A stretch of 64,000 nt of DNA from Promethearchaeota archaeon (GTDB lineage: Archaea; Asgardarchaeota; Lokiarchaeia; Sigyniarchaeales; SOKP01): NCBI GenBank assembly GCA_008080735.1, contig SHMW01000003.1, forward strand, positions 1 through 64,000, in the 5' to 3' direction. The notes under the pieces are model-generated. The model did no database searches, was not told the DNA's origin, and saw only the letters and a list, made by a program, of their open reading frames with translations. Within the stretch, counting starts at the first letter, position 1, and every line of letters begins with the position of its first letter. The translations under genes were made by a program, and so were the position numbers. Positions 17,806 through 22,254 of the stretch are shown here, piece by piece.

Positions 17806-18939
17806 ATGATTTATAAAGAAGAAAAGCCCGCAATTTTAATGTTAGAAGATGGTTCCTATTTTGAGGGAATCGGTGTTGGTGCGAGTAAGCAGATAATGGG
17901 AGAAATAACTTTTTCAACTGTTCCAGGATCGGGTTACATTGAAGCTTTAACAGATTTTGTGTATACAGATAAAATTTTAGTATTCACGTATCCTTCAATC
18001 GGAAATTACGGAGTTCCGAAAAAGGAGAAGGATGACCACGGCATACTTAAACATTTTGAATCTGATACCATAAAGGTGAGTGGTGTAGTATTGAATGAGT
18101 ACTGTGCAACCCCGAGTCATTATGAAAGTGTAAAAACTTTGGAAGACTGGTTAATAGAAGAAAACATTCCGGGAATTCAATGGGTTGATACACGGAGGCT
18201 TGTCCAACGGCTTGTTAAGGAACAGCATACTTTTGGTTTGTTAAAAGTATTTGAAACCGAACAAAAACCAGATTTAGAACAAATGAGGGAAGATTTAACC
18301 AACTTTCCCCAAGTATCTAATGGCCTTCCTGTTTCTAAAATTTCAACACCTCAGACTCAAAAATTTACTCCTTTAAATCCAAAGGCAACTGTTATAATTT
18401 TGGATCTAGGAACCAAGAATGGCATTATTCGGACGTTATTGTCTAAGAATCTTGAGATAATAAAAGTACCTTATTCATTTGATTATAAGCGGTTAGTTTC
18501 TCTTAATCCCGCTGGTATTATAATTTCAAATGGTCCGGGGAATCCCGCCTATATGGATGGTCCAATACAACTTGCCCGGGAATTGATTAAAAATAATATT
18601 CCTACGATGGGGATAGGATTAGGAAATATGGTACTAGGGTTAGCTGCTGGGATGGATATTTATAAGATGGAAGCAGAACATAGAGGCGGTAGAACAACCG
18701 TAGAAAAGGCCACCGATCAATGCTATATAACGTCCCAAAACCATGGATATTGTCTTAAATATAACAATTTAAATGGATTTAAGGAACTATATTATGATAA
18801 AGATGATAAGTCAAATGAGGGATTGATCCATGAAAATAAACCGATTTTTTCAGTGGTTTTTAATCCTGAAGGCTCGCCTGGACCCTTGGATATGAAAGAA
18901 AAGATATTTAATCAATTTATCGAATTATTGGAGGTCTAA
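17806..18939 (+). CDS. carA: Carbamoyl-phosphate synthase small subunit, copy 2 (glutaminase triad degenerate)
   Basis: Colinear 377 aa paralog of copy 1, but GIGLGNM replaces GICLGNQ and FNPE replaces FHPE. Confidence 0.92.
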   Translation: MIYKEEKPAILMLEDGSYFEGIGVGASKQIMGEITFSTVPGSGYIEALTDFVYTDKILVFTYPSIGNYGVPKKEKDDHGILKHFESDTIKVSGVVLNEYCATPSHYESVKTLEDWLIEENIPGIQWVDTRRLVQRLVKEQHTFGLLKVFETEQKPDLEQMREDLTNFPQVSNGLPVSKISTPQTQKFTPLNPKATVIILDLGTKNGIIRTLLSKNLEIIKVPYSFDYKRLVSLNPAGIIISNGPGNPAYMDGPIQLARELIKNNIPTMGIGLGNMVLGLAAGMDIYKMEAEHRGGRTTVEKATDQCYITSQNHGYCLKYNNLNGFKELYYDKDDKSNEGLIHENKPIFSVVFNPEGSPGPLDMKEKIFNQFIELLEV

Positions 18940-18942
18940 AAA

Positions 18943-21900
18943 ATGCCCTTAGATAAAAGTCTTAAAAAGGTTCTAATTTTAGGATCTGGTGCTGTAAGAA
19001 TTGGACAAGCGGGAGAGTTTGATTATAGTGGGAGTCAAGTTCTTAAAGCTCTTAACGAAGAAGGGATTGAAACCATTTTGGTTAATCCAAATATCGCCAC
19101 AATTCAAACAGACCCTCAAATGAGCTCTAAAGTGTACTTATTACCTATTAATATAAAATATGTTGAAGAGATAATTAAAAAGGAACGTCCAGATGGAATT
19201 TGTCTTTCATTTGGTGGTCAAACAGGATTAAATGTAGGAGTTGAACTCTATGAAGCAGGTGTTCTGGATAAATATAACGTTCGGGTTCTCGGAACACCCA
19301 TAGAAGCCATTCAAGATACAGAAGATAGGGATTTATTTGTGAAAGCGATGAACAGAGCAGATTGTCCTGTCTGCAGAAGTAGAGCAGTTAATTCTTATGC
19401 TGAAGCAAAGAAGGTTGCTGAGGAATTTGGATTTCCATTAATGTTAAGAGTAGCGTATGTGCTTGGAGGGAAAGGTTCTGGAATAATACGTGATTGGGAC
19501 CAGTTTGAACGTATGGCGAAAAGAGGACTCGCGCAATCACGTATTAACCAAATCTTGATTGAGGAAAGCGTTTGGGGCTGGAAAGAAATAGAATTTGAAA
19601 TTCTACGTGATGCTGAGGATAATTGTTTTATTAATTGTAGCATGGAAAATGTAGATCCGTGTGGTATTCATACTGGAGATTCAATTGTGGTGGCACCCGC
19701 TCAAACTTTATCAGATGAAGAGTTGCAAATGCTCCGAAGTGCATCTATTAGAGCCACGAAAGCGGTCGGTGTCTGCGGTGAGTGTAACATCCAATGGGCC
19801 TTAGATCCTTTTTCAAAGAAATTTAGAGCCATAGAAATTAATGCTCGATTATCTCGTTCTTCTGCTTTGGCATCAAAGGCTACTGGATATCCTCTAGCTT
19901 ATATCGCTGCTAAGATTGCGATTGGTTATTCCTTACCAGAACTTAAAAATCAAATAACTCTCAAAACTACTGCTAATTTTGAGCCTGCAACAGATTATAT
20001 GGTTCTAAAATATCCACGCTGGGACTTAACGAAATTTGAAAAAGTTGACAGAAGAATTGGCCCTCAGATGAAAGGCGTAGGAGAATGTATGAGTATTGGG
20101 AGGAATTTTGAAGAAGTTTGCCAAAAAGCCTTGCGAATGCTTGATATTGGATTAAAGGGCTTTGTAGCAAACGATTTAAATCCTATAGAGGATGTCAATG
20201 AATTAAAATATGAATTGCGTAATCCGACTGATTTGCGCTTTCTTAGAATCGCTGATGCGATGAAGAAGGGACTCTCAATCGATGAAATATATGATCGCTC
20301 TCGTATCGACAAATGGTTTCTTTATAAACTAAAAAATATTGTTGATATAGAAGGTGAACTTAAGAGTTTAGATTTTCTTGAATCAAGTGATAAAGAGAAG
20401 GAATATTTACTCACAAAAGCAAAAAGATATGGATTTTCTGATGGCCAAATTGCAAAAATAATAGGTGTAACTACCCCAATGATACGGAGATTGAGGAAAC
20501 GATATAATATTATCCCTTGTGTAAAGCAAATTGATACATTAGCAGGTCAATGCGTTCCAGAAAGAAATTATCTCTATTTAACCTATTGGGCTGACAAACA
20601 CGATATAGATTATTCTGAGGAAGAAAATTCTGATGAGAAGAAAGTAATCGTCTTAGGGAGTGGAACATATCGGATAGGAGCTTCCGTTGAGTTTGATTGG
20701 GGCTCTGTCAATTGCCTCTGGGGACTGCAAGAATTGGGCGTCGATAAAGCAATTATTATCAATTATAATCCGGAAACCGTAAGCACAGATTATGACATCT
20801 CTGATAGATTATATTTTGAAGAGCTTTCTGGAGAGCGTGTATTGGATATTTGTGAATTTGAAAGTCCATATGGAATAGTTCTCAATGCTGGCGGACAGAT
20901 TGCTCAAAACCTTGCGGCAAAGTTTTCTAAATATTCGGAATTTTTCCGAAAAACAGGTATAAATATATTGGGAACACACGGCTCTCGCATTGATATGGCG
21001 GAAGATAGATCAAAGTTTAGTGCATTACTGGATCAGCTTAATATAAAGCAACCCAAATGGGCGATGCTGACGACAACAGAAGAAGCAATTGAATTTGCAG
21101 ATGAGGTAGGTTATCCCGTCTTAGTTCGACCTTCATATGTCCTGAGTGGTGCGGCAATGCGGGTTTCATACGATGAAAAAACTTTACATGATACATTAGA
21201 TCTAGCCGCGTCCGTATCTCAAGAATATCCCGTTGTGATGACCAAGTTCTTCACCGATTCTCGCGAAGTTGAATGTGATGGTGTATGTGACGGGAAAAAT
21301 GTCTTAATCGGAGCCATTGTAGAACACATTGAAAACGCGGGGGTACATAGCGGTGATGCGACAATGGCTATCCCCCCGCAGACAATATCGAAGGAAACTT
21401 GTCAGCAAATTGAGGATTATACAAAGAAGATCGCATTAGCGCTTAAAATAATAGGACCTTTTAATGTTCAATTTTTAGTCAAAAATGGTAAGGTCTATGT
21501 TATCGAGTGTAATCTGCGCTCAAGTCGAAGTATGCCCTATGTTTCAAAAACAAAAGGGATTAATTTGATGAAATTGGCTGCTGAAGTAATTATGGGGAAT
21601 GAAATTCCCGAACGATTGTTGGATTTGCCTTATGGAAATTATGTTGCGGTAAAAGCACCGATGTTTTCATTTATGCGTTTGGATAATGCTGACCCTATAT
21701 TAGGAGTAGAAATGAATTCGACAGGAGAGGTTGCCGTAATTGGTGAGGACTTGCCAGATGCTCTCTTGAAAGCTTTAGAAGCTACCGAACAATACATACC
21801 TATTCATGAGGGAAACGTGTTAATTTCAGTAGGTGGAGAGGATCTGAAGCGTAAAATTATACCGCTTGCTAAAAAATTAAAGGATCTCGATTTTACTATA

Positions 21901-22254
21901 TTTGCCACGGAAGATACTGCCCGCACGCTGAAAGAAAATGGAATCACAGCAGTACGACTCTATAAGGTTCATGAATATGGAAAAGAACCTAACATAATGC
22001 GCTGTCTCCAAGATGGTCGTATTGATATGGTCATCAATATTCCACTTCCTACTACAAAGGAGGAAAAATTCCGCCGTATTATTAAAGATGAGTATGAGAT
22101 TCGAAGGATGGCGGTTGATTACAACATCCCCGTAATAATAAACTTACAACTCGCAGAAGCCATCATTGATGCTATTGATAAAGTGCGTACAAAAGAATTA
22201 ACGGTAAAATCTTTGGACGAGTACCACGAGAATTTGGATGAAATTTATTGGTAG
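18943..22254 (+). CDS. carB: Carbamoyl-phosphate synthase large subunit, copy 2
   Basis: 1103 aa paralog of copy 1 with the ATP-grasp motifs retained. Confidence 0.96.
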   Translation: MPLDKSLKKVLILGSGAVRIGQAGEFDYSGSQVLKALNEEGIETILVNPNIATIQTDPQMSSKVYLLPINIKYVEEIIKKERPDGICLSFGGQTGLNVGVELYEAGVLDKYNVRVLGTPIEAIQDTEDRDLFVKAMNRADCPVCRSRAVNSYAEAKKVAEEFGFPLMLRVAYVLGGKGSGIIRDWDQFERMAKRGLAQSRINQILIEESVWGWKEIEFEILRDAEDNCFINCSMENVDPCGIHTGDSIVVAPAQTLSDEELQMLRSASIRATKAVGVCGECNIQWALDPFSKKFRAIEINARLSRSSALASKATGYPLAYIAAKIAIGYSLPELKNQITLKTTANFEPATDYMVLKYPRWDLTKFEKVDRRIGPQMKGVGECMSIGRNFEEVCQKALRMLDIGLKGFVANDLNPIEDVNELKYELRNPTDLRFLRIADAMKKGLSIDEIYDRSRIDKWFLYKLKNIVDIEGELKSLDFLESSDKEKEYLLTKAKRYGFSDGQIAKIIGVTTPMIRRLRKRYNIIPCVKQIDTLAGQCVPERNYLYLTYWADKHDIDYSEEENSDEKKVIVLGSGTYRIGASVEFDWGSVNCLWGLQELGVDKAIIINYNPETVSTDYDISDRLYFEELSGERVLDICEFESPYGIVLNAGGQIAQNLAAKFSKYSEFFRKTGINILGTHGSRIDMAEDRSKFSALLDQLNIKQPKWAMLTTTEEAIEFADEVGYPVLVRPSYVLSGAAMRVSYDEKTLHDTLDLAASVSQEYPVVMTKFFTDSREVECDGVCDGKNVLIGAIVEHIENAGVHSGDATMAIPPQTISKETCQQIEDYTKKIALALKIIGPFNVQFLVKNGKVYVIECNLRSSRSMPYVSKTKGINLMKLAAEVIMGNEIPERLLDLPYGNYVAVKAPMFSFMRLDNADPILGVEMNSTGEVAVIGEDLPDALLKALEATEQYIPIHEGNVLISVGGEDLKRKIIPLAKKLKDLDFTIFATEDTARTLKENGITAVRLYKVHEYGKEPNIMRCLQDGRIDMVINIPLPTTKEEKFRRIIKDEYEIRRMAVDYNIPVIINLQLAEAIIDAIDKVRTKELTVKSLDEYHENLDEIYW

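Follow-up and report, generated by a model that had tools for sequence, protein, structure and literature searches.

The 64,000-nucleotide stretch of contig SHMW01000003.1 analysed here, from the assembly GCA_008080735.1 of a Promethearchaeota archaeon (the window), carries two full carA-carB pairs encoding both subunits, small and large, of carbamoyl-phosphate synthase (CPS), and the second of them, carA2-carB2, probably specifies an ammonia-dependent CPS that arose convergently with animal CPS I. The two pairs lie in tandem on the plus strand, and all four open reading frames (ORFs) are uninterrupted. carA1 (13215-14348) encodes a canonical small subunit whose Cys271-His354-Glu356 triad is intact, used here as the reference paralogue, and carB1 (14351-17662) encodes its canonical large-subunit partner. 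carA2 (17806-18939) encodes a small subunit with a dead glutaminase site that keeps the fold and the predicted CarB-binding surface, and carB2 (18943-22254), which starts 4 nt past the last base of carA2, encodes a complete large subunit. CarA1 and CarA2 are 48% identical, and CarB1 and CarB2 are 75% identical. A search of the window's own genome (93% complete) found no CPS copies beyond these two pairs. All four proteins score above the NCBIfam equivalog cut-offs for CPS subunits, CarB2 with 1410.9 bits against TIGR01369 (cut-off 1027) and CarA2 narrowly, with 321.7 bits against TIGR01368 (cut-off 307.35); CarA2 is matched by both PF00988 and PF00117 of Pfam.

Both the nucleophile and the general base of the glutaminase are replaced in CarA2. 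Cys271 of CarA1 (TGT at 14025) corresponds to Gly271 of CarA2 (GGA, 18616-18618, plus strand; E. coli Cys269), and His354 of CarA1 (CAT at 14274) corresponds to Asn353 (AAT, 18862-18864, plus strand; E. coli His353). The surrounding motifs change from GICLGNQ to GIGLGNM, from FHPE to FNPE, and from LTDPSY to LTDFVY, while the triad Glu is retained, with Asp in some family members. The initial annotation of this region had described carA2 as full length and uninterrupted, had named these four codons, and had pointed to the Gln-to-Met change after the nucleophile and to LTDFVY; the codons were exact and the motifs matched. The replacements also hold among orthologues. In an alignment of 121 small subunits, comprising the window's two and 119 database matches, Gly at the nucleophile site and Asn at the His site occur together in 103 of 103 CarA2-type sequences, none of which has Cys or His there, and Cys and His are present in all 18 CarA1-like sequences. 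CarA2 thus lacks the Cys-His-Glu triad that marks a glutamine-hydrolysing CarA (EC 6.3.5.5). Two other amidotransferases encoded in the window, PyrG and NadE, retain their nucleophile motifs, so the loss of the nucleophile is specific to CarA2.

Changes in CarA2 extend beyond the triad. When 36 CarA1-type and 110 CarA2-type sequences were compared and the fixed differences polarised with outgroups, the CarA2-derived changes were V35T, L64S, K134Q, R137V, D246N, C271G, G291E, N332D, and H354N, together with the loss of Asn296 and with S311F, the latter being absent from the window's copy. Every CarA2 lacks one residue adjoining the equivalent of E. coli Gly293, in a loop of the tunnel. At the positions that contact glutamine, Ser47, Gln273, and Gly313 in E. 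coli CarA, CarA2 shows no conserved contact: no residue is shared by more than 33% of sequences at the Gln273 equivalent or by more than 46% at that of Gly313, and the Ser47 equivalent may be Thr, Ala, Ser, or Val. Since these positions vary within the family, a glutamine-binding or glutamine-sensing role of CarA2 is disfavoured, including the sensing subunit that the initial annotation had offered as an alternative. The AlphaFold2 model of CarA2 has a predicted local distance difference test score (pLDDT) of 88.7 and template modelling (TM) scores of 0.90 to E. coli CarA (1c30_B) and 0.88-0.89 to human CPS1. The family has 64 invariant columns, new ones among them; in the dead domain, Asn246, Glu291, Arg296, and the run Asp331-Lys332-Asp333-Asp334 are newly invariant, and for the most part Glu355 and the QNH motif have been kept. 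Proteins of 377-379 aa make up all but a few of the family (outliers of 365-367, 385, and 406 aa), all 103 CarA2-type sequences can be aligned across the active-site region, and no stop codon was found in the carA2 loci examined.

The ratio of nonsynonymous to synonymous substitution rates (dN/dS) was calculated between the window and a syntenic relative (GCA_014730295.1, contig WJIN01000132.1, locus L080). It is 0.075 for carA1, 0.168 for carA2, 0.038 for carB1, and 0.024 for carB2. Four further genome pairs gave 0.11-0.16 for carA2, for a range of about 0.10-0.17 overall, and its N-terminal and dead amidotransferase domains are both constrained (0.08-0.17). For carB2, genome pairs with a usable dS gave 0.02-0.11. 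One nearly identical pair, G189 and G236, has a dS of only about 0.05 and noisy ratios of 0.51 for carA2 and 0.16 for carB2. Among nine tandem genomes, pairwise identity averages 0.77 for A1, 0.61 for A2, 0.81 for B1, and 0.825 for B2, and CarA2 evolves about 1.5-2.5 times as fast as CarA1. CarA2 is therefore somewhat relaxed and clearly maintained, and CarB2 is constrained like a canonical enzyme; set against carB1, its ratio of 0.02-0.05 is no higher. With a low ratio in both domains and an old, monophyletic clade, carA2 is neither decaying nor a young pseudogene, the latter being a state that the initial annotation had named as counting against its reading.

The large subunit looks catalytically complete from its sequence. 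Twenty catalytic and gate positions, covering both ATP-grasp sites, are invariant across CarB1, CarB2, and the outgroups, which bears out the earlier observation that CarB2 keeps its ATP-grasp motifs. Among them are the ammonia gate residues Cys232, Ala251, and Ala313 (E. coli Ala314), named as such in previous work (PMC4655335, PMC8674909). CarB2 has the two ATP-grasp halves, the gate, and the C-terminal MGS-like domain of a CarB. Between the two clades, 35 differences are fixed in CarB, which outgroups resolve into 20 B2-derived, 2 B1-derived, and 13 ambiguous. The carboxyphosphate core (residues 146-400) holds 21 of the 35, the oligomerisation domain 6, a patch at 535-541 included, the carbamate-phosphorylation domain 3, and the allosteric domain none. 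The B2-derived substitutions sit in the two CarB domains that contact the small subunit, and three of them, N233S, S253A, and Y261L, flank the ammonia gate in sequence. Within each clade, conservation in CarB is highest in the carboxyphosphate core, yet this core diverges more between the clades than the carbamate domain does. The allosteric domain gives no hint of a new effector. A division of labour between arginine and pyrimidine synthesis, of the kind found in Bacillus, was considered as the main difference between the pairs and rejected, as this domain has no fixed CarB1/CarB2 difference.

carB2 lies 1-7 nt downstream of carA2 in 17 of 18 loci and 55 nt downstream in the remaining one. 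A complex of CarA2 with residues 1-560 of CarB2 was predicted with an interaction prediction score from aligned errors (ipSAE) of 0.90, the best control reaching 0.00; the mark applied to this score is passed by 58 of 80 solved complexes and by 2 of 110 mismatched pairs. Three runs shared at least 90% of their contacts, with a partner pLDDT of 90-91. Since complexes of E. coli CPS and human CPS1 have already been solved, the prediction stands for likeness to these and is no proof of binding. The predicted interface contains 8 of 18 B2-derived sites, against a background of 10.5% (p=1.8e-4), and 9 of 23 CarA2 fixed sites, against a background of 14.6% (p=0.0025). The subunits therefore seem to have changed together where they meet, and this meeting surface is also where the ammonia tunnel crosses from one to the other.

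Phylogenetic analysis places the origin of the second pair within a single family. The database proteins closest to the window's CPS come from metagenome-assembled genomes of Lokiarchaeota/Promethearchaeota, and genome searches found the Gly/Asn CarA only in the window's own GTDB family. Some matches carry the NCBI name 'Hodarchaeota', and GTDB puts their contigs in this same family. Sampling across the phylum met the Gly/Asn CarA in 4 of 151 genomes, and within the order about 20 of 154 genomes have it, belonging to eight genera. CarA2 is monophyletic (support 100, stem 0.41) and stands beside the CarA1 clade of the family; in this tree, the outgroup row L020, a wrong ORF with a branch length of 10, was disregarded. 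CarB2 is likewise monophyletic (support 100) and sister to CarB1 together with the family's single-copy genes, and with other Asgard families as the root it nests inside the family. The stem of B2 is the longer by a wide margin, at 0.12 against 0.015 for B1. Monophyly, nesting, and unequal stems together argue that the carAB operon duplicated within one Lokiarchaeial family and that one copy then changed fast. Both pairs are apparently present in 15 genomes, mostly in tandem, and in some they are split by other genes or contigs. carA1B1 is linked to pyrG in 6 loci, and carA2B2 is found without such linkage. At locus L071 (G175:C56, 4170-11822), carA1 and carB1 are themselves about 3 kb apart, with four small ORFs on the opposite strand between them.

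The closest functional parallel is vertebrate CPS1 (EC 6.3.4.16; PDB 5DOT/5DOU), which, like CarA2B2, keeps a glutaminase-like domain made inactive by the loss of the catalytic Cys. In both enzymes the tunnel loop is altered where E. coli has Gly293, and the Cys/Ala/Ala gate is preserved. In human CPS1 the Cys is replaced by Ser294, and the Gly293 position is occupied by Gln318, which blocks the ancestral tunnel (PMC4655335). CPS1 differs in being one fused polypeptide that keeps the triad His, has Ser at the Cys site, and needs N-acetylglutamate, whereas CarA2B2 is encoded by two genes, has Gly and Asn at these sites, and originated inside a Lokiarchaeial family; it is neither a single fused polypeptide nor an orthologue of animal CPS1/CPS III. 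Human CPS1 is the best sequence match in the PDB for both CarA2 and CarB2. As CarA1 is closer to human CPS1 than CarA2 is (294 against 224 bits), the likeness of CarA2 to CPS1 is convergent. The parallel with the split between CPS II and CPS I that the initial annotation had drawn is thus supported by the trees as convergence and not as shared ancestry. Descent of animal CPS1 from the CarA2B2 clade was considered and rejected, because the trees nest A2 and B2 in the Lokiarchaeial family and CarA1 scores higher.

Separately, human CPS1 outscored E. coli CPS as a match to CarA1 (225 bits for the E. coli enzyme), to CarA2 (166 bits), and to CarB2 (1067 against 873 bits), and an insertion, EKDxxGxxKxFES, is common to CarA1, CarA2, and CPS1 and missing from E. 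coli CarA. Sequence comparison suggests a close relationship of Asgard and eukaryotic CPS.

E. coli CarA-CarB (EC 6.3.5.5; PDB 1JDB, 1C30, 1A9X) shares with CarA2B2 the two-subunit layout, the fold, the predicted interface, and the checked CarB catalytic residues. It differs in the triad, which is broken in CarA2; CarA2 naturally combines two kinds of change that were engineered in E. coli, a replacement of Cys269 (1c30 is C269S) and that of His353 by Asn (1a9x). The neighbouring CarA1-CarB1 pair resembles CarA2B2 in operon layout, in an allosteric domain without fixed differences, and in the level of CarB identity, and differs from it by its intact triad, its short stem, and its pyrG linkage. 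Among enzymes of the CarAB type, CarA2B2 is thus a convergent variant.

In a single genus, four genomes (G193, G189, G233, and G236; 92-99% complete) each possess a lone Gly/Asn carA and a lone gene of the carB2 type; searches with both proteins and with the family models turned up no further CPS match above the TIGR01368/TIGR01369 cut-offs. Each has two transcarbamylase genes, which in G193 are pyrB (370 bits) and the gene for ornithine transcarbamylase (OTC; 356 bits). Other species of the same genus, g2, hold the canonical A1B1 alone, as would be expected if either enzyme supplies carbamoyl phosphate. The only neighbours that recur beside carA2B2 in 20 loci are carA1B1 and, in the four A2B2-only genomes, an ORF of 345 aa. 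This conserved ORF (L074:10813-11850, minus strand, with homologues at L075, L076, and L077; 345-362 aa) lies directly upstream of carA2 on the same strand and has no match in Pfam or NCBIfam.

Ammonia is the most likely nitrogen donor, because CarA2 cannot split glutamine by the known mechanism. C269G/S and H353N mutants of E. coli CPS reportedly lose glutamine-dependent synthesis and keep ammonia-dependent synthesis. In the E. coli work of Rubino et al. from 1986 and 1987 and of Huang and Raushel from 2000, enzymes with Cys269 or His353 replaced or with a blocked tunnel reportedly keep ammonia-dependent synthesis, and the large subunit alone is said to make carbamoyl phosphate from NH3 in vivo. 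We propose that an ordinary carAB operon duplicated inside one Lokiarchaeial family and that the glutaminase of one copy afterwards lost both its nucleophile and its general base. The glutamine pocket would have been freed from constraint, and one tunnel loop and the CarB-facing surface would have been rebuilt. Meanwhile, about 20 substitutions would have become fixed in CarB2, in the carboxyphosphate and oligomerisation domains where the small subunit is seated and the ammonia tunnel ends, before strong purifying selection resumed on both genes. In the resulting enzyme, CarB2 would perform the whole synthetase chemistry, and CarA2 would be retained as a structural and ammonia-path subunit and not as an enzyme. 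Ammonia could enter by the remodelled CarA2 route or by a side path such as that proposed for CPS1 and E. coli CPS, the latter still active with ammonia in variants whose glutamine tunnel is blocked or perforated (PMC4655335). The substrate, its route, and a saving of ATP when ammonium is plentiful are all inferred. Direct use of ammonia would spare the ATP of glutamine synthesis, which is plausible for amino-acid-fermenting archaea of ammonium-rich sediments. A stronger form of the proposal, which we advance tentatively and at somewhat less than even confidence, is that CarA2 and the carboxyphosphate domain of CarB2 were rebuilt as a dedicated ammonia-intake module, giving a high-affinity CPS-I-type enzyme that is independent of the animal one and able to replace the glutamine enzyme fully, as it would have done in the four A2B2-only genomes. 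If so, Lokiarchaeia own a CPS-I-type enzyme that evolved apart from animals.

Several points weigh against an ammonia-dependent enzyme of this kind. E. coli CPS is a poor user of free ammonia, so that a good affinity of CarA2B2 for it is only assumed. Sequence alone does not account for the retention of a dead small subunit. At the interface, the polarised CarA2-derived subset is not significantly enriched (3 of 10, p=0.17), and the interface behind the enrichment tests was itself modelled with help from solved homologues. The four A2B2-only genomes also have a carbamate kinase gene beside those for OTC and ornithine aminotransferase, and since this cluster could in principle yield carbamoyl phosphate, the argument that CarA2B2 is their sole source of it is weakened. 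The cluster (arcC scoring above its cut-off; L052/L055, G193:C14, about 7.0-11.9 kb, with equivalents in G189, G233, and G236) looks like an arginine- or citrulline-fermenting module of the catabolic type, and arcC was not found in the window's genome. Finally, glutamine synthetase is present in 5 of 5 genomes checked, with no evident glutamine shortage that would force the use of ammonia. A glutamine shortage as the driver was rejected on this ground.

Other explanations account for parts of these data. It is unlikely, though the best of the alternatives, that CarA2 docks another ammonia-releasing enzyme, such as an amidase, a deaminase, or a separate glutaminase, which channels NH3 into the old tunnel, so that the donor is not free ammonium. 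The new invariant residues of the dead domain and the purifying selection on both domains suggest a retained function beyond scaffolding and would fit such a docking surface; against it, clustering of the flanks of the 20 loci showed neither an amidase nor a transporter or regulator that recurs next to carA2B2, and no conserved ammonia-releasing neighbour. That the enzyme has shifted its product or nucleophile is a decidedly unlikely option: it might carbamoylate another amine, or serve mainly in catabolism with a yield of ATP, instead of making carbamoyl phosphate for arginine and pyrimidines. The twenty B2-derived fixed substitutions do fall within or next to the domain in which carboxyphosphate is attacked by the nucleophile, and the carbamate kinase cluster of the A2B2-only genomes would suit a catabolic role. 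The checked catalytic and gate residues are nevertheless invariant, the carbamate-phosphorylation and allosteric domains have three and no fixed changes, respectively, and the occurrence of A1B1-only and A2B2-only species within genus g2 is that of interchangeable sources. We consider it very improbable that some non-canonical mechanism lets CarA2 go on hydrolysing glutamine or a different amide. It retains the class I amidotransferase fold, as its TM score to E. coli CarA indicates, along with most of the Glu355 and QNH conservation, but no replacement nucleophile is present where all 103 sequences have Gly, the general base is Asn, and the equivalents of Gln273 and Ser47 are not conserved. 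Lastly, the reading of carA2 as a relic, decaying or without function, that is merely transcribed along with a useful carB2 is scarcely credible, since the faster evolution of CarA2 relative to CarA1 is set against its low dN/dS, stable lengths, 64 invariant columns, freedom from stops in the examined loci, and conserved close spacing to carB2.

An ammonia-dependent CarA2B2 would also bear on annotation. NCBI and NCBIfam name CarA2-type proteins 'glutamine-hydrolyzing', with TIGR01368 scores of 321-357 bits against the cut-off of 307; this label is probably wrong and a systematic mis-annotation. In a review of CPS, mitochondrial CPS I is the sole ammonia-only CPS, and bacterial CPS is the glutamine-dependent CPS II (PMC6022934). 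In our full-text search of the literature, we met no glutaminase-dead CarA described for Asgard archaea or other prokaryotes. The CarA2B2 proteins make up a large family of archaeal CPS with two subunits, kept under selection and unable to use glutamine by the known mechanism. With the duplicate lying beside an intact paralogue, they would provide a natural experiment in the conversion of an amidotransferase into an ammonia-dependent enzyme, and would be relevant to the economy of nitrogen and energy in anoxic sediments rich in ammonium.

The surroundings of the window's CPS pairs are related to nitrogen metabolism. pyrG (10181-11899) lies in the neighbourhood, as does the gene for the glutamine-type NAD synthase NadE (24586-26235, minus strand). 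About 4 kb downstream of carB2, a gene for a KaiC-like ATPase is followed tightly by amt, for an ammonium transporter, and glnK, for a PII protein (26511-28970), and glnA is found at about 48112-49119 on the minus strand. The 143-nt spacer between carB1 and carA2 (17663-17805, plus strand) is A+T-rich as judged by eye. By the same inspection, T-runs follow carB1 and TATA-like TTATATTA boxes stand 25-40 nt ahead of the carA2 ATG, weak indications that the spacer may contain a separate promoter. Between pyrG and carA1 (12307-13060), at a spot whose equivalent in the syntenic relative L080 lacks them, an ORF with a HEPN domain and an overlapping ORF for a minimal nucleotidyltransferase likely form a toxin-antitoxin pair.

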